A stretch of DNA of 24,000 nt from an uncultured Haloferula sp. (GTDB taxonomy: Bacteria > Verrucomicrobiota > Verrucomicrobiia > Verrucomicrobiales > Akkermansiaceae): NCBI GenBank assembly GCA_964628795.1, contig CAZVMS010000216.1, forward strand, positions 12,164-36,163, in the 5' to 3' direction. The position numbers were made by a program, and so were the translations under genes. This document shows, piece by piece, positions 4,044 to 13,842 of the stretch. Each line of letters begins with the position of its first letter. The first letter of the stretch is position 1. The notes beneath the pieces are model-generated. The model made no database searches. It worked only from the letters and a program-made list of their open reading frames with translations, and was not told the DNA's origin.

Positions 4044-4292
4044 TATTTTCTCGCTGCCGGCGAGGTTGGCGAGGGTGCGGGCGACTTTGAGGATGCGGTC
4101 GTGGGCGCGGGCGGGAATGCGTTGACGGTGGTTTTCGAACTGACCGGGGGAGCCGCGGCATTCCCTCTTGGTGTCTCCGTAGTAGCCGCAGTTGCAGGGG
4201 TTCATGGCGGCGACGAGCATGAAGCGGGCGGGGAAGGTGAATGAGCCCGCTGCCCGGCTTTTCGAAACGGCACCGTCTTCAGACGGCTGTTT
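4044..4292 (-). pseudogene. comM: comM/yifB (Mg-chelatase-like AAA+ competence protein) internal/3' fragment, decayed
   Basis: The minus-strand translation reads ..QPSEDGAVSKSRAAGSFTFPARFMLVAAMNPCNCGYYGDTKRECRGSPGQFENHRQRI|PARAHDRILKVARTLANLAGSEKI. This matches the conserved ComM blocks (LRQPLEDG.V.ISRA, FPA.F.LVAAMNPCPCGY, RA..RILKVARTIADL). About 85 aa between the RI-SGPLLDRIDL region and the RA..RILKV block are missing. There is no N-terminal AAA+ part and no proper C-terminus. It corresponds to track ORF 3891-4220. Confidence 0.7.
4051..4191. repeat. Direct repeat copy A (141 bp, comM-derived)
   Basis: Hand alignment to 11502-11642 gives 129/141 identities with no gaps and the same orientation. 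Confidence 0.85.
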
Positions 4293-4342
4293 CTTTTCAC
4301 CACTTCGAATTGGCGGAAGTTATCATCAGAAGGCGTGTCATA

Positions 4343-5293
4343 TCATGCTGGGAAACGATTCGAAATTTCCTCGCCGATGAATCTTCGGGCATGGGTAAGG
4401 GGCATGGCCGAGACTTCCACCTCCAGCAGGCAGTAGATGGCGTCGTTGAATGATGGCTCCCGATGAAATGCGTGGAAAGTGGCACCAAGGGAAAGGTAGT
4501 GGCGGAGCAGCGGAGGGATGGGCTTGGGCTTTCCGGTGCGATCGGTGATGTGGGGACGAAGCTCATCGATGGTGGTTGATTTCGCGGCGACGTCCGGGTG
4601 GTTGGAGGGAAACGGCAGGCGGGCAGTGGCGAGCGGGCCGCCGGGATGAAGGCGGTGACGGTGGAGCCAGGAGGTCATCAGGCGGCGGGAATCATTGCTG
4701 AAATCCGGTGACAGGGTGACCGACCCGAAGAGCCTTTGGATGCCGTGTCGCCGGACCATCGCGCCGAGGCCCTGCCAGAGCAGCGGCAGGGCGATGCGAT
4801 CGTTCTGATAGGCGGCGGCCACAAAAGACCGCGTGAGTTCCACGGCGCGGGAGTCGCGGGAAAAAAAGCCGGGGTCGAAGTGGAACATGTGGCTGAGATA
4901 TAGGTTGGGCAGTCCATGGTCCGGCAGCACTTCGGCTGTGAAGCCGAGCCGGTAGGCGCCCGCGATCCGCTTGGCGTTCCGGTCCCAGAGGACGAGTTGG
5001 CGATACCATGCGTCCTCGCGGGTCTGATCGCGGCCGAGGCCGGTGCCCTGACCGGACAAGCGGAAGGTGATTTCTCGCTGGCGGGTCAGTTCGTGAAACA
5101 GCGCGGGCGCTTCGTCGCGATGGAAATCCAGCACCTCGAAATCGCCCCGTGAAAGAACCCGCGTGGCTGGGTCGGCGGCCAATTTTCCGGCATCGCGATG
5201 GATGGCTGCCGGATCGAGGGCAGGGTCAATGGGGAGTGGACGGGTCGATTTTGTGGCAGAGCTCATAAAGGATGCGGGTGGCAGCGGGATCAT
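4343..5293 (-). CDS. OlsB-like GNAT N-acyltransferase (Acetyltransf_5 / hemolysin-like; lyso-aminolipid synthase type)
   Basis: Blocks typical of the OlsB/GlsB family are present: RQREITFRL..G, LWDRNAKRIAGAYRL, VELTRSFVAAAYQ, LLWQGLG, IPPLLRHYLSLGA and the C-terminal AIYCLLEVEV. The start is uncertain (ATG 5293 or ATG 5266). Either start overlaps the upstream acyltransferase gene by 41-68 nt. Confidence 0.75.
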   Translation of the reverse strand: MIPLPPASFMSSATKSTRPLPIDPALDPAAIHRDAGKLAADPATRVLSRGDFEVLDFHRDEAPALFHELTRQREITFRLSGQGTGLGRDQTREDAWYRQLVLWDRNAKRIAGAYRLGFTAEVLPDHGLPNLYLSHMFHFDPGFFSRDSRAVELTRSFVAAAYQNDRIALPLLWQGLGAMVRRHGIQRLFGSVTLSPDFSNDSRRLMTSWLHRHRLHPGGPLATARLPFPSNHPDVAAKSTTIDELRPHITDRTGKPKPIPPLLRHYLSLGATFHAFHREPSFNDAIYCLLEVEVSAMPLTHARRFIGEEISNRFPA

Positions 5294-6044
5294 TGTCGGG
5301 AAGGTCGTCGGGGGCCGGGAACAGCTTCACCAACAGCGGGCAGGGACGGCGGCGCAGGGCTTCGCGGGGCAACAACAGGCTGCGGAGCATGGGCCAGCGA
5401 AGCGGCGTTAATCGCAACAGCAGCCCGGGGCACAGCGGGATGTGAACGAGCATGATCCGCGCACCGGCCCGCCGCGCTATCCGGATCAGGTGCGGCGACC
5501 ACGGTTCGTCGAGTGCGCGGCCGCGGCGGTCTCGTTTCCCGGCGACCCGGCCGGAGGGAAACGCGCCGACCACGCCGCCCTGTTTCAGGTGTGCGAAGAC
5601 CTGGCGCAGGCCGCGGAGGTTGACCGCGGCGTCGGCGTCCCATCCAAAAGGATCCAGTGGGATGCTGTGGCGGGAAAATTCGGGTTTGGAGGCGATCCAT
5701 GGGTTGGTGAGAATTTTCCAGTCTTGGGGAGCAAGGGATTCTAACAGTCGCATCAGGATCAGCGCTTCGATCATCCCGGTCGGGTGGTTCGCAAGCACGA
5801 GCGTGCCGGTTTTCCCGGTGGACGGCGTTGGGGGCGGTACGAGTCTCCAGGTGACGCCAAGTTCCCGCAAGACGGCTTCGGAGAAGGCATCGGCGTTGCC
5901 GTCACGGGGCGCGGCGCGGCGGTGGACGCGGTTGATGGCGCGGATCCCGGCGAGGGTCTCGATGATCGGCAGGAACGGGCGAAGCCATGCGGACCGCAGC
6001 CACATCGAGATGTCGAGAAATGGAGGATCATGCGGCTTCTTCAT
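5226..6044 (-). CDS. PlsC-like (lysophospholipid/lyso-aminolipid) O-acyltransferase
   Basis: It has the acyltransferase block I H-x4-[DE] (LANHPTGMIEA) and a block III-like motif (GAFPSGRV). Its ATG overlaps the stop of the upstream NRDE gene (ATGA at 6041-6044). Adjacency to an OlsB-like gene is the OlsBA/GlsBA arrangement. Confidence 0.8.
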   Translation of the reverse strand: MKKPHDPPFLDISMWLRSAWLRPFLPIIETLAGIRAINRVHRRAAPRDGNADAFSEAVLRELGVTWRLVPPPTPSTGKTGTLVLANHPTGMIEALILMRLLESLAPQDWKILTNPWIASKPEFSRHSIPLDPFGWDADAAVNLRGLRQVFAHLKQGGVVGAFPSGRVAGKRDRRGRALDEPWSPHLIRIARRAGARIMLVHIPLCPGLLLRLTPLRWPMLRSLLLPREALRRRPCPLLVKLFPAPDDLPDNDPAATRILYELCHKIDPSTPH

Positions 6045-6766
6045 GGCAGCGGGATGGGGATCTCACGGTGATTCCAGTTCCCGGGAGCAGATTGGCGGCC
6101 GGAGCATTCACGATAGGAAAACCGCGCTGCCGAGTTTCCGAGTTTGATGCGCGATTGGCTGACCGTCCGTCGTTCGCCACGGTCCATCCACACCGAGCTG
6201 TGGGGATCGCCGTCATGGGCGCCCTCGTGAAATCGCATGAGGTCGGTGTCTGTGAGCGGCCCGTTTTTTTCCGTCATCTTTTTGAAGGCGCGGTTCCGCC
6301 GTGGCAGCACGTTTGGGTCGTTCGATGACGAGGTGCTGATCATGCCGGTCGGCCAGGTCGCTTGCCGCGAGGAGAGAGCCAATCCATCCCAGGACTCGAT
6401 CCGGACCGCGTTTCGCCGGAGATGGATGAGGTGGAATGGCGCGACCCCATCAAGCGAACGGGTGAGTCGCTGCCAGGCGTCTGCCGGATCGGCGGCGGCT
6501 GCGAGCTGCCAGACGATGAGTCCGCGGCTGTGTTTCGGGGCGGATGGTGGCTGTGCGCCATAGTGATTGAGCAAGGCGAGGGCGATGCCATCCGCGCGCA
6601 CCGCCAGCCAGGTGCCGCCGCCGAGTGGATCGCGTGGAGCGAGAAACGAATGGGCCTCGCCCGCGTGCAAGCGAGGTGCTTCGGCGAGCGGGCGCGCGAT
6701 GCTCTCGTCACGATTGAAACAGAGAGTCAGGCCCTCCGTTGTTGCCATCCATGAGAGCGTGCACAT
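6041..6766 (-). CDS. NRDE family protein (TANGO2-like, putative N-terminal-Cys hydrolase fold)
   Basis: The preferred start is MCTLSW (ATG at 6766), giving the family-typical N-terminal Met-Cys-Thr. The eponymous NRDE motif is present (CFNRDESIARP), as is GGTWL. It starts 4 bp downstream of the DinB-like stop. Confidence 0.8.
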   Translation of the reverse strand: MCTLSWMATTEGLTLCFNRDESIARPLAEAPRLHAGEAHSFLAPRDPLGGGTWLAVRADGIALALLNHYGAQPPSAPKHSRGLIVWQLAAAADPADAWQRLTRSLDGVAPFHLIHLRRNAVRIESWDGLALSSRQATWPTGMISTSSSNDPNVLPRRNRAFKKMTEKNGPLTDTDLMRFHEGAHDGDPHSSVWMDRGERRTVSQSRIKLGNSAARFSYRECSGRQSAPGNWNHREIPIPLP

Positions 6767-6770
6767 GAGA

Positions 6771-7262
6771 TCAACCAGCGGTCTGTTGGGTGAAGTGCCT
6801 CGCGGTGGATGGTGCCAGGCCGATCTCGTCCGCCACCGCGCGACCATGGTCCCGCAGCAGCATTCCGATCAGAGCGAGGTGATGGATGGTGTGGCTGAAG
6901 GCAAAACCCAGTTCGCGGCCGAGACTCGATTGCTGCCGGCCTTGCAGCGACTCTTTGACGAGCAGCGGCAGGTCGTGTGGCAGGCTTTCGATGCGCTCCC
7001 AGTCCGTGGATAGGATGTGTTGGATCGTCTGGCAGGCGATTTGCGGACAGGACTCGATGTCCGCATTTCTACGGCGCGCGTCGTAGTTCACCTCGCCGGC
7101 CCCGATGCCTTCGAAGAGGCATTGGTAGAACTCGATGCAATGCCGCACATGTCCGCCGACCGTTCCGCCAGGCAACAGTTTGCAGCGGTGCCGGAAGGCA
7201 TCCTCGCCGAGCGGGGTGATTGCCGCCAGCAGTTGCTTGAGGGCGCCGGGACTGGAAGTCAT
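6771..7262 (-). CDS. DinB-like (DinB_2/YfiT-type) putative metal-dependent enzyme
   Basis: His-containing helices typical of the DinB fold are present (GTVGGHVRHCIEFYQ; FSHTIHHLALIGMLLR). The chosen start is ATG 7262 (MTSSPGALKQLL) because it forms an ATGA overlap with the preceding small ORF. ATG 7274 is an alternative. The 7409 start of the track ORF is unlikely. Confidence 0.65.
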   Translation of the reverse strand: MTSSPGALKQLLAAITPLGEDAFRHRCKLLPGGTVGGHVRHCIEFYQCLFEGIGAGEVNYDARRRNADIESCPQIACQTIQHILSTDWERIESLPHDLPLLVKESLQGRQQSSLGRELGFAFSHTIHHLALIGMLLRDHGRAVADEIGLAPSTARHFTQQTAG

Positions 7263-7450
7263 GCGCGAATCCATGAAATGAGAGCGACCGCTCCCTGCAC
7301 AATCAGGAAGCCGAGGAGCAGCAGGGTTCCGGGGCACAGCCCTTTGGCACAGAGGCCCGTGCGGCAAGAAGCGTCCTCGCACTTGGGAGGTGTGCCGATT
7401 CGTTGCCAATTCGTGGCGGCGGGTGGTGCGGATGTTTCCGATGGTTTCAT
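7259..7450 (-). CDS. Small (63 aa) Cys-rich tail-anchored membrane protein, C-x4-C-x4-C-x4-C
   Basis: Translation: MKPSETSAPPAATNWQRIGTPPKCEDASCRTGLCAKGLCPGTLLLLGFLIVQGAVALISWIRA. It has four Cys at exact 5-residue spacing followed by one hydrophobic helix. Its stop overlaps the DinB-like ATG (ATGA at 7259-7262), and it is co-directional with the cluster. No homologue was recognised. Confidence 0.45.
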   Translation of the reverse strand: MKPSETSAPPAATNWQRIGTPPKCEDASCRTGLCAKGLCPGTLLLLGFLIVQGAVALISWIRA

Positions 7451-7611
7451 GGGGATAGGAGGTTCATTTCATGGGGAAGTTCCCGTGCGAAAACGCTTCC
7501 CATGCTCGAACCATGAGTCGCGCGGGCCGGAGCTTCCTTAACAAGGAATCTCGGGGTGTGGCGTGATGAGTTGGAGGTTCTAGGCAAGGTCGAGGTGGTG
7601 GTTCATCCCCA

Positions 7612-7950
7612 TCATTTCGCGTTGTGGTAGAGGTGCTTTTCGATGCGCTCCCTCGCTTCGCGGGGGAGCGGCTCGGAATCGTTCGTGTCAGGAGCCTCTT
7701 CGTGATGACAGCAGCGGACCCAGTGCCGGAGGTTTTCGAACTGGGCGGGAAGGTGACGGCAGATGCCGCAAACCAGCAGGTGCATGCGGAGGCGCATCGA
7801 ATCGACGGGCTTGAGCGGGCCATCCATGCGTTGCGACGAAAGCCGGAAGGCATCGCGGCAGGTCATGCGGGTAAGCTTGAGCAACGGCCACATCATGGCT
7901 TCCATGATGCGGTAGCGCAGCGGCGGGCGTGGCAGTGAGACGGGTTTCAT
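7612..7950 (-). CDS. Small anti-sigma factor, zinc-binding (zf-HC2/ZAS-like), no obvious TM segment
   Basis: The start ATG overlaps the sigma gene stop (ATGA at 7947-7950). It has a ZAS-like H-x3-C-x2-C motif (MHLLVCGICRH) preceded by MTCRDAFRLSSQRMDG, which resembles the anti-sigma N-terminus C..... L..Y.DG. The C-terminal part contains WVRCCHHEE. Confidence 0.65.
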   Translation of the reverse strand: MKPVSLPRPPLRYRIMEAMMWPLLKLTRMTCRDAFRLSSQRMDGPLKPVDSMRLRMHLLVCGICRHLPAQFENLRHWVRCCHHEEAPDTNDSEPLPREARERIEKHLYHNAK

Positions 7951-8513
7951 GGCTGGATGCCCTGGTTTTGGAGGCAGATGCGCAGTTGCTGGCGCGAGCG
8001 GGTGAGCAACACGGCGGCGCTGCCTTTGGTGACACCTGCGGCGGCGGCGGCGGAAGGGACGTCGAGGCCATCGATCTCGCGCAGGGTGAACAAGAGCCGC
8101 AGACGCTCGGGGAGTTTTTCCATGCAGGCGCGGATCCACGTGGCGATTTCACTGCGGTTGGTAGCTTCATCCGGTGGCGCTTCCAGGGCGGACATGCCGT
8201 GGTTGGGGTCGATGCGCCACGAGCCGTGGCGATCGAAGGCGGAATCCAGCGGGTCGGCGGATGCCTCGAAGGGATCGACGCCTTGGTCGGACGGCGTGCG
8301 TTTCGATTTCCGGAAATGATCGATGACTTTGAATTTCATGATGCCCAACAGCCAGGTGGAGAGTTGCGAACGGCCGTCAAAGGACTCGCGTCGTTGCCAT
8401 GCGGCGGTGAGGCAGTCCTGCACGAGATCCTCGGCGGCGTGATGATCCCTGACCTTTCCCAGCGCGAAGCGGTAGAGAGTGTCGGCATGTTGCATGAGAT
8501 CGTCGATGGTCAC
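7947..8513 (-). CDS. ECF (group 4) sigma-70 family RNA polymerase sigma factor
   Basis: Region 2 reads LYRFALGKVRDHHAAEDLVQDCLTAAWQRRESFDGRSQLSTWLLGIMKFKVIDHFRK. Region 4 reads LPERLRLLFTLREIDGLDVPSAAAAAGVTKGSAAVLLTRSRQQL. The track start at 8513 is a GTG, and the first ATG is at 8495. Confidence 0.9.
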   Translation of the reverse strand: MTIDDLMQHADTLYRFALGKVRDHHAAEDLVQDCLTAAWQRRESFDGRSQLSTWLLGIMKFKVIDHFRKSKRTPSDQGVDPFEASADPLDSAFDRHGSWRIDPNHGMSALEAPPDEATNRSEIATWIRACMEKLPERLRLLFTLREIDGLDVPSAAAAAGVTKGSAAVLLTRSRQQLRICLQNQGIQP

Positions 8514-8566
8514 GGTGACAAGGATGGCTTGCTGGGGATGAATGGCCAGACGGGATGTTCAGCCCG

Positions 8567-9067
8567 CTATGATGCATTTTCCGTTTTGCCCTGGAGTCGG
8601 CAACATCCGCCCTTGCAGAGGAAACGCCCGATGAGCGCATCCAGCGAGGCGCGGCCCGGACCGAAGGCGAGAACCACCAGGGAGACGATCAGATACGCGT
8701 AGGGTGCTTCGTCAGCGAATTCACCGAGACCGGCGAAGGCGTCCTCACGGTGTGCGGTGAGGTAGGCGACGATCATGGAAGCGGCGAGGGGAACCGCCGC
8801 GGTGCGCGACATCAGGCCGGCGACCAGCAGCAGTCCGCCGATCATTTCGACACCTCCTACGAAGGCGGCGTGGAATCCGGGCGCGGGGATGCCGAGCGAT
8901 TCGAAGAAGCCGGTGGTGCGTTCGAGATTGGTGAGCTTGCCCTTGCCGGTGAGGAAGAACGACCAGCCGATGGTGAGGCGGGCGAGCAGCAGGGTGCCAT
9001 CCGCGATCCAGGGCTGGGCGCGAGTGAAGAGGGAGCGGACGAGTTGGATGATTGCTTTGGATTTCAT
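8567..9067 (-). CDS. DoxX family membrane protein
   Basis: The preferred start is MKSKAIIQL (ATG 9067), 11 bp after the DUF2063 stop. It has the DoxX-like four-helix pattern (LLLARLTIGWSFFLTGKGKL, GIPAPGFHAAFVGGVEMIGGLLLVAGL, AAVPLAASMIVAYL, YLIVSLVVLAFGPG). It has an unusual Cys-rich tail, FLCKGGCCRLQG. Confidence 0.85.
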   Translation of the reverse strand: MKSKAIIQLVRSLFTRAQPWIADGTLLLARLTIGWSFFLTGKGKLTNLERTTGFFESLGIPAPGFHAAFVGGVEMIGGLLLVAGLMSRTAAVPLAASMIVAYLTAHREDAFAGLGEFADEAPYAYLIVSLVVLAFGPGRASLDALIGRFLCKGGCCRLQGKTENAS

Positions 9068-9078
9068 GATGCTTTCTG

Positions 9079-9876
9079 TTAGATGATGGCGAACCAGCCA
9101 TCGGCCTGCCAGGTGGCGCACCAGCGGCTGAGGGTATCGGTGCCGGGGATGTGGGGTGCGCTTTCCTCCAGCCAGTCGTCGAGGGACCAGGGGCGTCCGT
9201 GCAGCAGGGAAAGCATGGCGAACTCACCGGGTTCGAGAGAACGGTGGCGGACACCTCCCTCGCGGGTGCGCCAGACGGCGGCGTGATGCCGGTCACCCTC
9301 GCGCCAGCCGGATTCCGGATCGTGGAGCCAGGCGGAGGCATCGGCCTCGGTTTCGAGCAGGCGGACGTGGGCTTGCAGCGTGAATGATTCGTCGGCGACC
9401 TGCCTTGCGGTGGCGGGCGGAAGTTCGGCCGCTTCGAAACATGCCATCATCGACCACTCGACGGTGGCGATGGCGATGGCACGGCGGCGCAGCACAGGGT
9501 CGGTGATTTCCTTGCCGACAAACCGGGGCATCGCCCGTCCGAGGTGGCGCAGGGTGAAACTTTGCGACGGATGGGCGAGCAGATAGTTTTCCAACAAGTT
9601 CCAGAAACGTTCGTTGCCGAGAAGAGTCTTCAGGCCGGGGAAATCCTCGGCCACGGAATCGAGCAGGCGAAACCAATACTGGCGGTGATAGAGTTCCAGG
9701 CACTCGGCAGGAATCAGCGTGGGCGACGGGCGGAGCAGATCGTGGGCGGTGGAGAGGAACGCCGGGTCGTGCGGTTCGTCGGAGGCGGGCAGTTCGGTCG
9801 AGCGGCGGCTGGTGCCACGCAGCGGGAACTGCAGCGCGTCGAAAAAGCGGCGTTGGGTTTCAGCAAGCGGCGGCAT
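9079..9876 (-). CDS. DUF2063 domain protein (MNIO partner protein, BufC/HvfC/MbnC-like role)
   Basis: DUF2063-typical features are the N-terminal L.E.Q..F..AL..P and LELYHRQYWFRLLDSVAEDFPGLKTLLGNERFWNLLENYLLAHPSQSFTLRHLG. Its ATG at 9876 overlaps the DUF692 gene by 17 nt. Confidence 0.8.
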   Translation of the reverse strand: MPPLAETQRRFFDALQFPLRGTSRRSTELPASDEPHDPAFLSTAHDLLRPSPTLIPAECLELYHRQYWFRLLDSVAEDFPGLKTLLGNERFWNLLENYLLAHPSQSFTLRHLGRAMPRFVGKEITDPVLRRRAIAIATVEWSMMACFEAAELPPATARQVADESFTLQAHVRLLETEADASAWLHDPESGWREGDRHHAAVWRTREGGVRHRSLEPGEFAMLSLLHGRPWSLDDWLEESAPHIPGTDTLSRWCATWQADGWFAII

Positions 9877-10732
9877 GATGAGGCGTGCGTTGGGTGGCTT
9901 TGAAAAGCTCGGTGTCCCAGTAGGCGGAGGCTTTGAGCGCCTCGTTGTGGACTTCCTCGAAGGACGGGATGTGGGCGTCCCACTCCAGAAGCGTGGGTAC
10001 CGGGCCGCAGCGCTCGATGGCGCGGGCGTAGAGTTTCCACACCGGATCGATCACCGGGTGGTCGTGGGTGTCGATGATGAATCGCTCGTATTTTGAGTGG
10101 CCGGCGATGTGCATCTGCATGACCCGCTCCGGTTGGATGAAATCGACATATTCCAGCGGATCGAAGCCGTGGTTGATCGAGGAGACATAGATGTTGTTCA
10201 CGTCGAGTAGAATGCCGACATTGGCGCGTTCGACGACTTCGGCGAGAAATTCCCACTCGGTCATCTCGTCGTCGTTGAAGGCCGCGTAGCTGCTGACGTT
10301 TTCCACGGCCATCGGGATTTCGAGATAGTCCTGGGCGATGCGCAGGTTCTCGGCGATGCCGCGCGCCGCTTCGGTGGTATAGGGCATGGGCAGCAGGTCG
10401 TGGCTGAAGGTGCCGTCCACGCTGCCCCAGCAAAGGTGATCGGAAATCCACGGCGTGCGCGTCCGTTTGATGAGCGCCTTCAGGCGGCGCAGGTGGTCGA
10501 AATCGAGGCCTGCGGCATTCCCCGGGTAGAGCCCCACGCCATGCTGGACGACCTGGTATTGCTCCAGGATGCGGTCGAGCACGGCGAGGGGTCTTCCCCC
10601 GTCCACCATGAAATTCTCGGAGATGATTTCGAACCATGAAACGTCGGGCGTTTCCGAAAGGATATGATCGTAATGCGGCACGCGCAGTCCGATGCCGATG
10701 CTGAGCGGCTTGGTTTCCTGGTGCGGTTTCAT
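9860..10732 (-). CDS. DUF692 family multinuclear non-heme iron oxidase (MNIO; MbnB/BufB/HvfB-like)
   Basis: There is an essentially full-length DUF692/UPF0276 pattern: SIGIGLRVPHY, VSWFEIISENFM, VVQHGVGL, WISDHLCW, HDLLPMPYT, MAVENVSSY, EWEFLAEVV, ILLDVNNIYVSSINHGFDP, MHIAGHS, IDTHDHPV and PTLLEWD. Confidence 0.92.
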   Translation of the reverse strand: MKPHQETKPLSIGIGLRVPHYDHILSETPDVSWFEIISENFMVDGGRPLAVLDRILEQYQVVQHGVGLYPGNAAGLDFDHLRRLKALIKRTRTPWISDHLCWGSVDGTFSHDLLPMPYTTEAARGIAENLRIAQDYLEIPMAVENVSSYAAFNDDEMTEWEFLAEVVERANVGILLDVNNIYVSSINHGFDPLEYVDFIQPERVMQMHIAGHSKYERFIIDTHDHPVIDPVWKLYARAIERCGPVPTLLEWDAHIPSFEEVHNEALKASAYWDTELFKATQRTPHHAAAC

Positions 10733-10758
10733 GATGGTAGAAATGGAATGAGAGAAAT

Positions 10759-10791
10759 TCCGCGCGGACGACTTGCTGCCGCCCGCGCGGA
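10759..10791 (-). terminator. Intercistronic GC-rich stem-loop between precursor gene and MNIO gene (possible attenuator/partial terminator or mRNA-stabilising hairpin)
   Basis: TCCGCGCGG (10759-10767) and CCGCGCGGA (10783-10791) form a perfect 9-bp stem around a 15-nt loop. On the minus-strand transcript the hairpin is followed by AAUUUCUCUCAUUCCAUUUCU. Confidence 0.4.
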
Positions 10792-10801
10792 TGGGTGAGC
10801 C

Positions 10802-11092
10802 TCAGAGGATCGAGGAAGCGAGCTTGTCCTTGCCCTTGCAGCCGTCCTTGCCGGAGCACTTCTCCTTGTCGCCTTCTTTCTTTTTGCCATCGCATCCGTC
10901 CTTGCCGGAGCACTTGTCTTTCTCGGCGGCCAGGACGCTGGTGATGGATTCCTTCTTTTTGCCATCGCAGCCGTCCTTGCCAGAGCATTTTTCCTTGTCC
11001 GCATTGACATAGCCAATGGCGGCGGTGGCGCTGCCTGCGGCGAAGAGTCCGGCGAGTGCGGCGGTGGCGAGGGTTTTGGTGGTTGGATTCAT
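10802..11092 (-). CDS. Secreted Cys-repeat RiPP precursor peptide (bufferin/oxazolin-like; 96 aa)
   Basis: The preferred start is ATG 11092 (MNPTTKTLATAALAGLFAAGSATA|AIGY..., a Sec signal with an A-x-A site). The core contains three copies of (D/E)K(E/D)KCSGKDGC(D/K)GK, giving 6 Cys. It lies directly upstream of DUF692/DUF2063/DoxX on the same strand. Confidence 0.8.
   Translation of the reverse strand: MNPTTKTLATAALAGLFAAGSATAAIGYVNADKEKCSGKDGCDGKKKESITSVLAAEKDKCSGKDGCDGKKKEGDKEKCSGKDGCKGKDKLASSIL
10829..10999 (-). repeat. Three 42-nt coding repeats inside the precursor gene
   Basis: The units are at 10829-10870, 10883-10924 and 10958-10999. The two pairwise hand counts made (unit 1 vs unit 2, unit 1 vs unit 3) each give 36/42 identities. 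Each unit encodes one xKxKCSGKDGCxGK module. Confidence 0.85.
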
Positions 11093-11430
11093 GATGATTT
11101 CTTGTGGTTGTCTGTTTGTGGTTTGCCGCCTTCCGATGCCCGTGTGGCATCTCCGGCGCACTGGTGAGTCGTCCGGCGTTCGCGAGGCTTAACACGGATG
11201 ATGAAGTTTTTTCCTATTCCTCGGGTTGGCCCCCAAACCGGTAGGCATCACGAGAAATCATCCAGCCAAGACGAGTTGAGTCGATGTGGCCAAACCATGA
11301 TCCACCCGCCTGGCTCTCTTTGGTAGGGAGCGGATGTTGATTTTCCACGATGGGTTTCATGCCGCCCAAGCTTCGCAACAGAAAGTTGATGAGCGTCCTA
11401 CTCGGATGTGTTAGGCGGCTGAACCGGCGG

Positions 11431-11642
11431 TCATGAAAACAGACTCTGATTCAACGAGCGGTATTGGAGCGCCTCAAGAATGTGGTTTGGGGCGAATGGA
11501 TTCGCTACCGGCGAGGTCGGCGAGGGTAAGGGCGACTTTAAGGATGCGGTCGTGGGCGCGGGCGGGAATGCGTTGGCGGTGGTTTTCGGTCTGGCCGGGG
11601 GAGCAGCGGCATTCTCTCTTGGTGTCGCCGTAGTAGCCGCAG
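11431..11642 (-). pseudogene. comM: comM/yifB 3'-terminal fragment with authentic C-terminus
   Basis: The minus-strand translation reads (stop)[74 protein letters not shown]. It has the same internal deletion junction as the 4044-4292 fragment. Unlike that fragment, it keeps the canonical ComM end (EA.QYR.L). An in-frame stop lies immediately upstream, and there is no 5' part of the gene. Confidence 0.7.
11502..11642. repeat. Direct repeat copy B (141 bp, comM-derived)
   Basis: This is the partner of 4051-4191, with 129/141 identities and the same orientation. Confidence 0.85.
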
Positions 11643-11767: not shown

Positions 11768-12325
11768 GTGAATGACATGAACTCGGCATCCCAGCATCGC
11801 CCTCAGGATTCCCGTCAAGAGGCGGAGATCGCACTCGGCATTGCCTCTCTGAGGCTGCCACTACGCGGCTATCTGCACACGCTCGTTCCGGACCGGGCAG
11901 CTTGTGATGATCTGGTCCAAGAGACGTTGCTATTTCTCTGGGAACGGAGGGAAAGCGCCGATGAATCGACCCCGCTCAAGACATGGGCCTTCAAGGTGGC
12001 GTGGTTCAAGTCGATGGCCTGGCATCGCGACCGTCGGCGGGACCGCCTGGTCTATTTTTCCGACGACATGCTTCAACAGATTGCCCCATTGGCCGAGGCG
12101 ATGAGCAGCACCGCCGAGAATCGACTGGAAGCCCTGCGCCACTGCCTGGCTGGCCTCCCGGAAGAGGATTTGGCCTTGCTGCGGCTCAAGTATGTCAATC
12201 AGGGATCGCTCACCAGCTACGCCAACGCGCGGGGTTGGAAACCAAACCGCGTGCAGAAAGCCCTCTCTCGCCTGCGCCTTGCGTTACGCCATTGCATTCG
12301 GACTCGCCTACTTTCAGAATCATGA
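11768..12325 (+). CDS. ECF sigma-70 family sigma factor (Rhodopirellula/Verrucomicrobium-type)
   Basis: Region 2 reads DDLVQETLLFLWERRES...LKTWAFKVAWFKSMAWHRDRRR. Region 4 reads LPEEDLALLRLKYVNQGSLTSYANARGWKPNRVQKALSRLRLALRHC. The track start 11768 is a GTG, and ATG 11777 is equally possible. Its stop overlaps the next ATG (ATGA at 12322-12325). Confidence 0.9.
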   Translation: MNDMNSASQHRPQDSRQEAEIALGIASLRLPLRGYLHTLVPDRAACDDLVQETLLFLWERRESADESTPLKTWAFKVAWFKSMAWHRDRRRDRLVYFSDDMLQQIAPLAEAMSSTAENRLEALRHCLAGLPEEDLALLRLKYVNQGSLTSYANARGWKPNRVQKALSRLRLALRHCIRTRLLSES

Positions 12326-13842
12326 ACACCCCCACCCCAGAACTGCGGGATCTACTCGACCGCCTGATCGACGAGGATGGCCTGAGTCGCTCCGATATGG
12401 GCCGACTTGAAGAGCTGATGAGCGAGCCGGAAATCATGTCCTATTGCTGCGAAATGCTGCTGCATGAGTCGCTCATGCCTGAGGCCCTTGCGACCATGGA
12501 AACCGCGCTTTCGCATGTCCATGGAGATCAGCAGCCAGTTCGATCGGGTGTGATGGGTCGTATTGCCCGGATTCTTCCGCTGGCGGCGGCTGCCGGACTC
12601 TCCTTTTTCGCAGGGCTACTGGTCGGCGATAATCCGTCTCCTCCGCCGGCATCCGCCGCCGCTCCACCCGCCGGATTCACCACAGACCACGCCGCCAAGG
12701 TGACCGGCCTGATGGGCGTCGTCTGGCAAGACAACGCCGCCCCGACCGTCATTGATGGCTCGGTGAACGCACAAAGGGTCGCGTTCAAGAGCGGATTGGT
12801 CGAACTGACTTACGCCAGCGGCGCGCGCGTCACCCTCGAAGGTCCGGCCGATTTCACCGTGTCCGATCCGACTTCCGGCCGACTCTCAGCCGGCAAACTC
12901 GTGGCCTACGTGCCCAAGGGCGCGGAAGGATTTACCGTCGATTACGGCAATGGTCAGGTCGTTGACCTTGGCACCGAGTTCGCGATGGATCTCGCCGCGA
13001 ACGGCAAAATGGAACTCGGCGTGTTCGAGGGCGAAGTGGAGCTTCACCTGCCCGACGAAACTCCATTGTTACTTAACCGCAGCCAGGCAATGGTGCACGA
13101 TCGGAATGCGGAAGAACCACTCCGCCCCGTGCCCTTCGACCGCGCCAAGTTCGTCCGCGAGCTTCCGAATCGGGACATTCCATGGGCGATAAAATCCTCC
13201 GAACCGACGGAGCTGGAACTCGACATCAGCCACCTCATCTGGAAGTCAGCGGAATACCGGGCCATCTTCAAGTGGTTCTCTGGGAAGGACGCTGTGGAAA
13301 TCCGCCACGTCGAACTCCGCCGGGACGGTGAGCTGATTGCCGCAGACCCGCATCCCGGGCAGACCGGCCTGCTTCTTCATGTGAAGGATAACATCTACGA
13401 CCTCACGATTCCTTCCGGCTACTATCAACCCGGCCGCTGGACCCTCCACGCCACCATCGCCCAATTGCCGCGAACCGGTGGAATGACCCGCTACCGCGGC
13501 CCGGTCGATAGCTCGGGAGTCATGGTCTTGGAGGAAGGCATGGTAAACCGGGCGCAGGCAGCTGACTTCATCGGTGCCTGGAGTTATTCGTTTGCCGGTG
13601 CCCGCTTCGTCCGCCGGTTCCACGCCGATGGCACCATCACGGTCACCAAGAACGGACAACGGCAGCCCAAAGCCTTCGCCAACTGCTCTTGGTGGGTGGA
13701 CAAGGGCGTTCTTCATGCGGAGATCCCGAACGGCGACGGATTGGTGGAGACCCACATCCTGCGCGACCGCGACACCTTGATCTTCACCAACCGGTCATTT
13801 GGCAATGCGGTTCGTGTTGCGGAAGAGGGCAGCGGCGATTGA
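12322..13842 (+). CDS. FecR-like transmembrane anti-sigma factor with an uncharacterised C-terminal domain of about 230 aa
   Basis: The chosen start is ATG 12322 (MNTPTPELRDLLDRLIDEDGLS), coupled to the sigma stop by an ATGA overlap. It has a single TM (IARILPLAAAAGLSFFAGLLVG) and a FecR-type beta-rich region (GLVELTYASGARVTLEGPADFTV...GFTVDYGNGQVVDLGTEFAMDL...GVFEGEVELH). The rest of the protein (from about IPWAIKSSEP onward) was not recognised. Confidence 0.8.
   Translation: MNTPTPELRDLLDRLIDEDGLSRSDMGRLEELMSEPEIMSYCCEMLLHESLMPEALATMETALSHVHGDQQPVRSGVMGRIARILPLAAAAGLSFFAGLLVGDNPSPPPASAAAPPAGFTTDHAAKVTGLMGVVWQDNAAPTVIDGSVNAQRVAFKSGLVELTYASGARVTLEGPADFTVSDPTSGRLSAGKLVAYVPKGAEGFTVDYGNGQVVDLGTEFAMDLAANGKMELGVFEGEVELHLPDETPLLLNRSQAMVHDRNAEEPLRPVPFDRAKFVRELPNRDIPWAIKSSEPTELELDISHLIWKSAEYRAIFKWFSGKDAVEIRHVELRRDGELIAADPHPGQTGLLLHVKDNIYDLTIPSGYYQPGRWTLHATIAQLPRTGGMTRYRGPVDSSGVMVLEEGMVNRAQAADFIGAWSYSFAGARFVRRFHADGTITVTKNGQRQPKAFANCSWWVDKGVLHAEIPNGDGLVETHILRDRDTLIFTNRSFGNAVRVAEEGSGD

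Follow-up and report, generated by a model that had tools for sequence, protein, structure and literature searches.

A putative two-promoter sigma factor regulon joining a bufferin-type peptide operon and a predicted aminolipid cassette in an uncultured Haloferula

Does the long run of genes behind a bufferin-type peptide operon belong to that operon, and if so, in what sense? The question is raised by a stretch of 24,000 nucleotides from an uncultured Haloferula sp. (Verrucomicrobiota, Akkermansiaceae; GCA_964628795.1, contig CAZVMS010000216.1), hereafter the window, whose minus strand carries eleven genes from position 11092 down to 4343, headed by the precursor and the MNIO enzyme of a cluster for a ribosomally made and then post-translationally modified peptide (RiPP). 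A first-pass annotation had listed these genes with their junctions and had described those behind the RiPP core as one long accessory tail. The eleven co-oriented genes and the junctions were confirmed from the open reading frames (ORFs), and the family annotations hold as well, through Pfam and NCBIfam profile searches of the block proteins and, for the DinB fold, through AlphaFold2 (AF2) and Foldseek. The tail itself, however, is two units and not one. The first consists of the genes for the precursor, the MNIO enzyme, an HvfC-like protein, DoxX, an extracytoplasmic function (ECF) sigma factor and a ZAS (zinc-containing) anti-sigma factor; the second is a five-gene cassette starting in the 161-bp gap behind the anti-sigma gene and encoding a mini-protein, a DinB-like protein, an NRDE/TANGO2 protein, a PlsC-like and an OlsB-like acyltransferase. 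The reading that we favour, and hold to be fairly probable on the sequence evidence, is that the ECF sigma factor, whose gene lies in the middle of the block, governs the region as a regulon with two promoters, in which a peptide and an aminolipid would be co-induced under thiophilic-metal(loid) stress. It starts from what is directly observed, namely the gene content, the conservation of the cassette, a motif common to both units and the co-occurrence of this motif with the sigma factor.

A motif common to both units and its fate in relatives

A bipartite motif, GTTAAG-N16-CGACTCA, is found in gene orientation in the intergenic regions ahead of the precursor gene and of the mini-protein gene. 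The first copy (P1, 11165-11193, minus strand) lies 72 nt ahead of the precursor's ATG and the second (P2, 7514-7542, minus strand) 63 nt ahead of that of the mini-protein, and both are putative ECF-type promoters. The strict form GTTAAG-N16-CGACT has three matches in the 5.8-Mb genome, two of them being P1 and P2 on the correct strand, and the two matches in the window compare with none in 100 shuffles, even when one mismatch is allowed. A weight matrix trained on six foreign sites only, with which approximately 11.7 million positions were scanned, ranks the P1 and P2 sites first and second genome-wide (23.9 and 23.3 bits, the next match reaching 18.7). The runner-up matches, all with poor scores, are intragenic in long ORFs or stand 200 nt away from a sulfatase gene; they were rejected as further regulon members, and the predicted regulon in this genome is limited to P1 and P2. 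An origin of P1 and P2 from one repeat element was rejected too, since neither their 16-nt spacers nor their flanks are related. A scan for sigma-70 promoters between 3900 and 11800 found none, and no terminator was predicted after the anti-sigma gene.

The motif recurs at equivalent positions elsewhere (our labels are G for genomes and L for loci; L067 is G330, and L120/L121 are G330:C244). It stands ahead of precursor genes in G008, G020, L070 and L175, and ahead of the cassette in L066, L070, L073, L075/76 and L078. Among 41 relatives the exact motif is limited to G000, G008 and G020, which are the genomes with this sigma factor in the MNIO cluster, and every motif site in these three precedes a precursor gene or a cassette. 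At the scale of the family (401 genomes), 20 genomes have an orthologue of the sigma factor, 18 have the motif and 11 have both: the motif is present in 11 of the 20 sigma-positive genomes versus 7 of the 381 others (Fisher p = 5e-12, kin not being independent), with 23 matches in the former and seven single ones in the latter. In G219, G277, G166, G366, G382 and G330 motif sites are found no more than a few kb away from the sigma gene. From this co-occurrence we infer that GTTAAG-N16-CGACTCA would be the cognate promoter of this sigma factor.

The cassette is conserved in its own right. In L066, L073, L075/76 and L078 all five genes recur with their order unchanged and with the 4-bp and overlapping junctions of the window, and in L067, L070, L077 and G053 they recur with minor losses; these relatives come from metagenome contigs and from two other genera of the family. 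The 63-aa mini-protein is conserved in six foreign loci at 50-71% identity, and the PlsC-like and OlsB-like genes are adjacent or fused in every relative examined. The single translational unit of DinB, NRDE, PlsC and OlsB genes proposed by the first-pass annotation is thus borne out by gene order and junctions in L066, L067, L073, L075/76, L078 and G053, except that the unit starts with the mini-protein gene and not with the DinB-like one. One 22.8-kb contig (ENA ERZ4787356 NODE_1986) carries two paralogous five-gene cassettes, L066 and L078. At L053:9164-10420 (G025:C24) a DinB-like/NRDE pair (30% and 27% identical) is found without PlsC or OlsB genes, and since it stands there without them, the DinB-NRDE pair is the more basic unit.

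Four settings of the cassette can be distinguished. In the window and in L070 (MNIO 90%, sigma factor 78% identical) it accompanies the MNIO operon and the sigma/anti-sigma pair. In L075 and L077, which are short contigs, the sigma/anti-sigma pair (sigma factor 84-86% identical) lies directly upstream of the cassette. In G330 (95% complete) a sigma orthologue (69% identical) is found 15 kb upstream, with no MNIO in the genome, and in G053 (97% complete) the cassette occurs without MNIO and without the sigma factor. On contigs L066, L073 and L078 an MNIO was not seen with the cassette. Conversely, the closest bufferin-sigma operon recovered, L175/L176 (MNIO 86%, sigma factor 82% identical), shows an identical order of genes but lacks the cassette. 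Since the cassette occurs in MNIO-less genomes and L175 lacks it, it is not an obligatory tailoring set for the peptide.

The promoter arrangement varies along with these settings. In G330 all three motif sites lie on the contig that carries the sigma orthologue and the cassette, the last one leading into a DedA-reductase-DinB-NRDE-PlsC-OlsB series. The cassette of L077 has neither a separate promoter nor a mini-protein gene and continues the operon of sigma factor, anti-sigma factor and redoxin. In a tree of the DinB-like and NRDE proteins, the motif-bearing cassettes form two sister clades (A and B), with the motif-less G053 outside: the cassettes of clades A and B all have the motif or, judging by contiguity, direct co-transcription, while the more distant one of G053 has neither. 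Because the tree groups the motif-bearing cassettes and leaves G053 outside, these sequences suggest a single ancient recruitment of the cassette into the regulon, kept through approximately 50% protein divergence. Of the paralogous cassettes L066 and L078, which fall into clades A and B, each has a motif copy of its own. Gene content near the cassette differs in L070 (7322-8286 and 10779-11555), L075 (818-1429) and L077 (738-1454): all three have an AhpC/TSA redoxin gene between anti-sigma gene and cassette, and L070 has there in addition a 109-aa gene without family match, both of which are absent from the window. L070 also lacks the PlsC-like gene and has a DUF3179 gene after OlsB.

Protein families and a predicted mechanism

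All genes described in this section and the precursor hairpin lie on the minus strand. The first unit begins with a gene (10802-11092) whose translation is a secreted Cys-Lys repeat precursor of the bufferin/EGKCG-like kind, with three EKCSGKDGC modules and with homologues beside MNIO genes in L036, L037, L070 and L175. A 69-bp gap with a 14-pair hairpin (10759-10791, 11 G-C pairs and then a U-rich tail), a candidate attenuator or stabiliser, separates it from the gene of the MNIO enzyme (DUF692, MbnB_TglH_ChrH; 9860-10732; 348.5 bits), which overlaps by 17 nt (9860-9876) that of the DUF2063/HvfC-like partner protein (9079-9876; Pfam and NCBIfam). The gene of the DoxX membrane protein (8567-9067) follows after 11 bp, given its start at 9067 (an alternative GTG start lies at 9121). 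The bufferin/Buf_EGKCG (oxazolin-type) set is therewith complete, comprising a Cys-repeat precursor with signal peptide, MNIO, DUF2063 and DoxX, with the HvfC and HvfX equivalogs both under their cut-offs (39 vs 142 and 66.7 vs 80 bits). After a 53-bp gap (8514-8566) comes the gene of the ECF sigma factor (7947-8513), TIGR02943-like but under the family cut-off, which has only the Sigma70 r2 and r4_2 domains. It overlaps by an ATGA (7947-7950) the downstream zf-HC2 gene (7612-7950), which encodes a soluble ZAS anti-sigma factor of 112 aa (113 aa in the homologues). The HxxxCxxC motif of this protein reads HLLVCGIC in the translation; it reaches 46.5 of the 50 bits of the antisigmaE subfamily, and its match to the RsrA equivalog is weak (22.6 vs 62.5 bits).

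The 161-bp gap (7451-7611) holding P2 leads into the first cassette gene (7259-7450), which encodes the 63-aa Cys-motif mini-protein with the core SC(R/K)xxLCSKG followed by a transmembrane helix as C-terminal membrane anchor. The DinB-like gene (6771-7274, 167 aa) had been assigned a start at 7262, through an ATGA overlap; this is less likely than a start at 7274 (MDSRM, 16-nt overlap with the mini-protein gene), which matches the homologues. Its product, a predicted metalloprotein, has no Pfam match above the gathering score (DinB and DinB_2 at 16.3 and 14.4 bits), and sub-threshold matches to these two families occur in 9/9 and 8/9 homologues, the best value being 7.9e-6. The AF2 model, from an alignment of nine homologues, has a predicted local distance difference test score of 86.3 and a predicted template-modelling (TM) score of 0.84, and its top approximately 34 PDB matches in Foldseek are all DinB/YfiT proteins (e.g., 2f22, 3dka, 3gor, 1rxq; TM up to 0.67, probability 1.0). 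The DinB/YfiT fold is thus confirmed for the modelled structure, and the call rests on structure prediction, since the search of the profile against PDB sequences gave only a weak match to YfiT (E = 0.66). Six histidines (42, 45, 128, 131, 132 and 160) are invariant in the homologue alignment.

A 4-bp gap (6767-6770) precedes the gene of the NRDE/TANGO2-family protein (6041-6766), which has an N-terminal Cys (MCTLSW) and matches PF05742 with 57.7 bits vs a gathering score of 22.6. The start MCT(I/L/V/M)(S/T/A)W and the FNRDE motif are present in 10/10 homologues, and a PDB sequence search with this protein gave no match. Through an ATGA overlap (6041-6044) follows the gene of the PlsC/OlsA/GlsA-like protein (5226-6044), a putative lyso-aminolipid O-acyltransferase, which overlaps by 41-68 nt (5226-5293) the last gene of the block (4343-5293). 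The PlsC-like protein stays under the Pfam threshold (PF01553, 16.8 bits vs 23) and is assigned by sequence motifs and by its alignment with the N-terminal half of OlsF (2e-15); its catalytic blocks NHPxGxx[E/D] and FP[S/A]GxV are invariant in seven homologues. The last protein, an OlsB/GlsB-like putative amino-acid N-acyltransferase, matches Acetyltransf_5 (PF13444, 51.7 bits vs a cut-off of 22.4) and aligns with the C-terminal half of OlsF (2e-44). It is encoded by the sole OlsB-type gene found in the genome, no second copy having been found there. A scan of genome contigs with OlsB gave relatives at 36-38% identity only, and one with the NRDE protein gave no match. A terminator-like hairpin (4273-4286) lies 57 nt past the OlsB-like stop codon.

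From these assignments a mechanism can be proposed. The ZAS anti-sigma factor would hold the sigma factor until a thiol-reactive stress (copper, arsenite, a disulfide or an oxidant) inactivates it. The freed sigma factor would then act at P1 on the operon from the precursor gene to the anti-sigma gene, and because this operon includes the sigma gene, it would be positively autoregulated; the hairpin at 10759-10791 probably raises the ratio of precursor to enzyme. From P2 the same sigma factor would drive the five-gene cassette, with read-through possibly helping, since no terminator is predicted after the anti-sigma gene. One output would be a periplasmic, Cys-derived metal-binding peptide. 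The other would be a phosphorus-free acyloxyacyl aminolipid, for which the OlsB-like protein would N-acylate an amino acid and the PlsC-like protein would then O-acylate the product. The NRDE protein, of predicted Cys-Ntn type, and the DinB metalloprotein may serve as accessory lipid-handling or editing enzymes, the mini-protein being a predicted membrane-anchored companion. For the NRDE protein we infer a role in acyl transfer or amide editing on the lyso-lipid because of its Met-Cys start, of the reported acyl-CoA binding by human TANGO2 (PMC11867700), and of the Cys-Ntn hydrolase fold that TANGO2 has in common with bile-salt hydrolase, acid ceramidase and NAAA (PMC13044924). Any such lipid would be stress-inducible in this organism, since the gene in the cassette is the only one of the OlsB type in the genome. 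Taken by their sequences, the cassette enzymes are predicted to act on lipids and not on the peptide.

Common regulation weighed against adjacency, co-transfer and tailoring

The first-pass annotation had offered two functions for the tail, a coupled envelope response and a further tailoring of the peptide. The former keeps its ground in that the same rare ECF-type motif precedes both precursor and cassette and that in L070, L075 and L077 the sigma pair immediately precedes the cassette; its lipid product is a prediction from the enzyme families. Tailoring, in which the OlsB-like, PlsC-like, DinB and NRDE proteins would acylate or otherwise modify the Lys/Cys-rich bufferin, is disfavoured and seems to us highly improbable. 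The cassette does lie next to an MNIO operon in the window and in L070, the precursor is Lys-rich, and lipidated MNIO RiPPs exist, although they are made via the lipoprotein pathway (PMC13056109). Yet the cassette is kept in the MNIO-less G330 and G053 and on contigs L066, L073 and L078, while the L175 bufferin operon does without it; it has its own putative promoter; its enzymes match aminolipid synthases (the OlsF halves, GlsB/GlsA); and the survey of the MNIO landscape (PMC12452194) names no acyltransferase, DinB or TANGO2 partner.

If the cassette is not a tailoring set, it might be an independent aminolipid operon that happens to lie beside a bufferin cluster, with a motif that is coincidental or read by another factor. 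Several observations fit such mere adjacency. The cassette of G053 occurs without MNIO and sigma factor, the NRDE marker is found in 65 of 400 family genomes, and L175 has the bufferin-sigma operon alone. The MNIO core is common among 40 sampled relatives (10 of 24 genomes of the genus have it at 73-81% identity) and never adjoins OlsB, PlsC, NRDE or DinB homologues in these 40; PlsC-OlsB pairs of the same genus are approximately 35% identical and lie elsewhere in the genome, 735 kb from the MNIO gene in the closed G017. We nevertheless regard this explanation as unlikely, given that the two best motif matches of the genome are exactly the P1 and P2 regions, that motif and sigma orthologue go together in the genomes of the family, and that the sigma/anti-sigma pair adjoins the cassette in L070, L075 and L077, contiguously in the last. 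Independence from DUF692 clusters, which according to the first-pass annotation would reduce the arrangement to adjacency, is thus real (G330, G053), but with a common regulatory signal and a recurring linkage to the sigma factor it does not amount to mere adjacency. Joint acquisition without joint function is about as unlikely. Here the block, from approximately 4192 to 11501, would be a mobile or recombination-delimited island between two repeats derived from comM. Direct repeats of 141 nt on the plus strand (4051-4191 and 11502-11642, 91% identical) flank exactly this block, the left copy being a decayed 3' fragment of comM/yifB, and both copies apparently have the same internal deletion of the comM-like gene; the cassette did not turn up in 34 further genomes of the genus, and the MNIO of L070 is 90% identical, as opposed to 73-81% in same-genus relatives. 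Against it, neither an integrase nor a transposase is found inside the block, more repeat copies occur elsewhere in the genome, and co-transfer accounts for the co-location but not for the common promoter, so that it is compatible with a regulon. The repeats that bracket the block suggest that it could have come in, or could be excised, in one piece.

As regards the repeats themselves, both are comM/yifB-like fragments (Pfam Mg_chelatase and Mg_chelatase_C). A fuller copy lies approximately 16 kb past the window (C216:52345-52739), where the two halves are approximately 270 nt apart, and it is by comparison with this copy that the window copies seem to carry the deletion; weaker copies are found on C74, C342 and C169.

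The two-promoter regulon is itself faced with observations that weigh against it. Nine of the 20 sigma-positive genomes lack the exact motif, under a strict pattern and a loose orthology cut-off, and the motif is unlike the classic ECF consensus (GGAAC / CGT). Autoregulation is not a general trait either, for in G330 the sigma gene has no motif directly ahead of it. The cassette is not found in any of the 34 other genomes of the genus (NRDE 0/34), nor in L175, and the coupling is thus optional. Finally, the acyltransferases stay far under the NCBIfam equivalog cut-offs (OlsF 152.1 vs 620, GlsB 110 vs 300, OlsB 41.7 vs 350, GlsA 26.5 vs 260).

Regulon content in the family and relation to known systems

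In relatives, the genes located behind the motif belong to several modules. Cys-Lys bufferin precursors are found there in G253, G277 and G166 (loci L136, L150 and L146, respectively), with CKGKDGCKGKDGCKGEKKEEKK-type repeats, a design related to, yet distinct from, the EKCSGKDGC modules of the window. An ArsM-like methyltransferase lies behind the motif in G219, G330, G366 and L178; further genes in this position encode ArsS (417 bits vs a cut-off of 300), TIGR04282/04283 arsenosugar glycosyltransferases and AhpC/TSA redoxins, DedA/VTT proteins, some of them fused to a MerA-like FAD oxidoreductase, as well as DUF547 and DUF3179 proteins, a PstS-like transporter and MsrA. Given these genes and the soluble HxxxCxxC anti-sigma factor, we read the regulon as one that answers thiol-reactive soft metal(loid)s or oxidants and whose output modules would have been swapped between lineages.

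In other genera of the family (L120/L121, L067, L073, and L137-L157 in G382 and G366) the motif heads an arsenic-related island with genes for the ArsM-like protein, the radical SAM protein ArsS, TIGR04282/04283, PstS-like, DUF547 and DUF3179 proteins and the DedA-MerA-like fusion. This island also encloses the aminolipid cassette in G330, L067 and L073. A further arrangement is seen at L178:283-790 (ENA ERZ4787356 NODE_19845), where tblastn finds short remains of precursor, DUF2063 and DoxX genes just ahead of a sigma/anti-sigma pair (87% identical). This pair is now followed by an operon headed by the motif, with genes for ArsM-like, HEAT-redoxin and DUF5069 proteins. By its sequence this looks like a decayed bufferin operon of which the switch was kept. 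The window itself holds a second ECF sigma factor with a FecR-like anti-sigma factor (11768-13842), divergent from the block and unrelated to the GTTAAG motif, whose FecR-like orthologues in the genus are only approximately 50% identical and not syntenic.

A zinc-containing anti-sigma factor as thiol-stress switch is known from SigR-RsrA of actinomycetes. The pair described here resembles it in combining a soluble HxxxCxxC zinc anti-sigma factor with an ECF sigma factor, and the regulons of relatives contain a redoxin, MsrA and a flavoprotein disulfide reductase; it differs in ECF group (best NCBIfam TIGR02943, under cut-off) and in promoter motif. The closest parallel for the peptide operon is found in Caulobacter vibrioides, where the bufferin operons buf1 and buf2 belong to the SigF/NrsF copper regulon (PMC11626156). 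Common to both systems are an ECF sigma/anti-sigma pair beside an MNIO bufferin operon, a metal-stress switch (predicted in our case) and a regulon that reaches beyond the operon of the sigma factor. Unlike the membrane protein NrsF, however, the anti-sigma factor of the window is a small soluble ZAS protein (zf-HC2), the precursor peptide is of the Cys-Lys repeat kind (EGKCG-like), and the predicted second target is an aminolipid cassette, with arsenic genes in relatives, neither of which has been reported for SigF.

On the lipid side, OlsB/OlsA, OlsF and GlsB/GlsA provide the two-step route to ornithine, lysine and glycine lipids, which is often stress-induced (PMC12971839), and the cassette likewise pairs a GNAT-like N-acyltransferase (Acetyltransf_5) with an LPLAT-type O-acyltransferase. 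In contrast to those pairs, the one in the cassette always has DinB-like and NRDE genes ahead of it, in most cases together with the gene of the 63-aa Cys membrane protein, and it is predicted to be controlled by an ECF promoter and not by PhoB or low salt. The same review mentions neither copper nor sigma/ECF factors, TANGO2 or DinB; the ZAS partner, the aminolipid target and the arsenic targets are mentioned neither in PMC12452194 nor in this 2026 review. In the vca0649-vca0646 operon of Vibrio cholerae, VCA0646 is OlsF, and vca0647 and vca0648 are not described in the paper (PMC12186959). Where NRDE and acyltransferase are fused, the arrangement differs from that of the window, in which the NRDE protein is separate and an additional Cys mini-protein is present, and instead of an AraC-type or salinity control the cassette is predicted to be under the ECF sigma factor common to the RiPP operon.

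The novelty therefore lies in the regulatory link between bufferin operon and cassette, while the ECF regulon, the bufferin cluster and the aminolipid genes are each of known kinds. An unexplained tail of a RiPP cluster is hereby turned into a testable prediction, in which one ZAS-controlled ECF sigma factor and two promoters would yield a peptide and an aminolipid. For genome mining, it cautions that co-oriented downstream genes should not be counted as RiPP tailoring enzymes. One could go further and propose that the cassette is no generic phosphate-sparing pathway but a dedicated soft-metal(loid) defence, under the thiol-stress sigma factor that would also serve the bufferin and the arsenosugar genes. 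The OlsB/PlsC pair, with the NRDE enzyme, the DinB metalloprotein and the Cys mini-protein, would then either lipidate the metallophore or produce or edit an aminolipid that interacts with thiols, copper or arsenic. We consider this quite improbable; if true, it would give bacterial TANGO2-family proteins their first defined biochemical and physiological role. In any case, the DinB-NRDE/TANGO2 pair is placed by the two-promoter regulon under a predicted thiol/metal stress switch, which suggests conditions for assaying its function. With it the Verrucomicrobia, most of whose ECF regulons are still unmapped, would gain a defined promoter motif and a regulon built of modules (bufferin, arsenic methylation and arsenosugar genes, redoxins, DedA and the aminolipid cassette).

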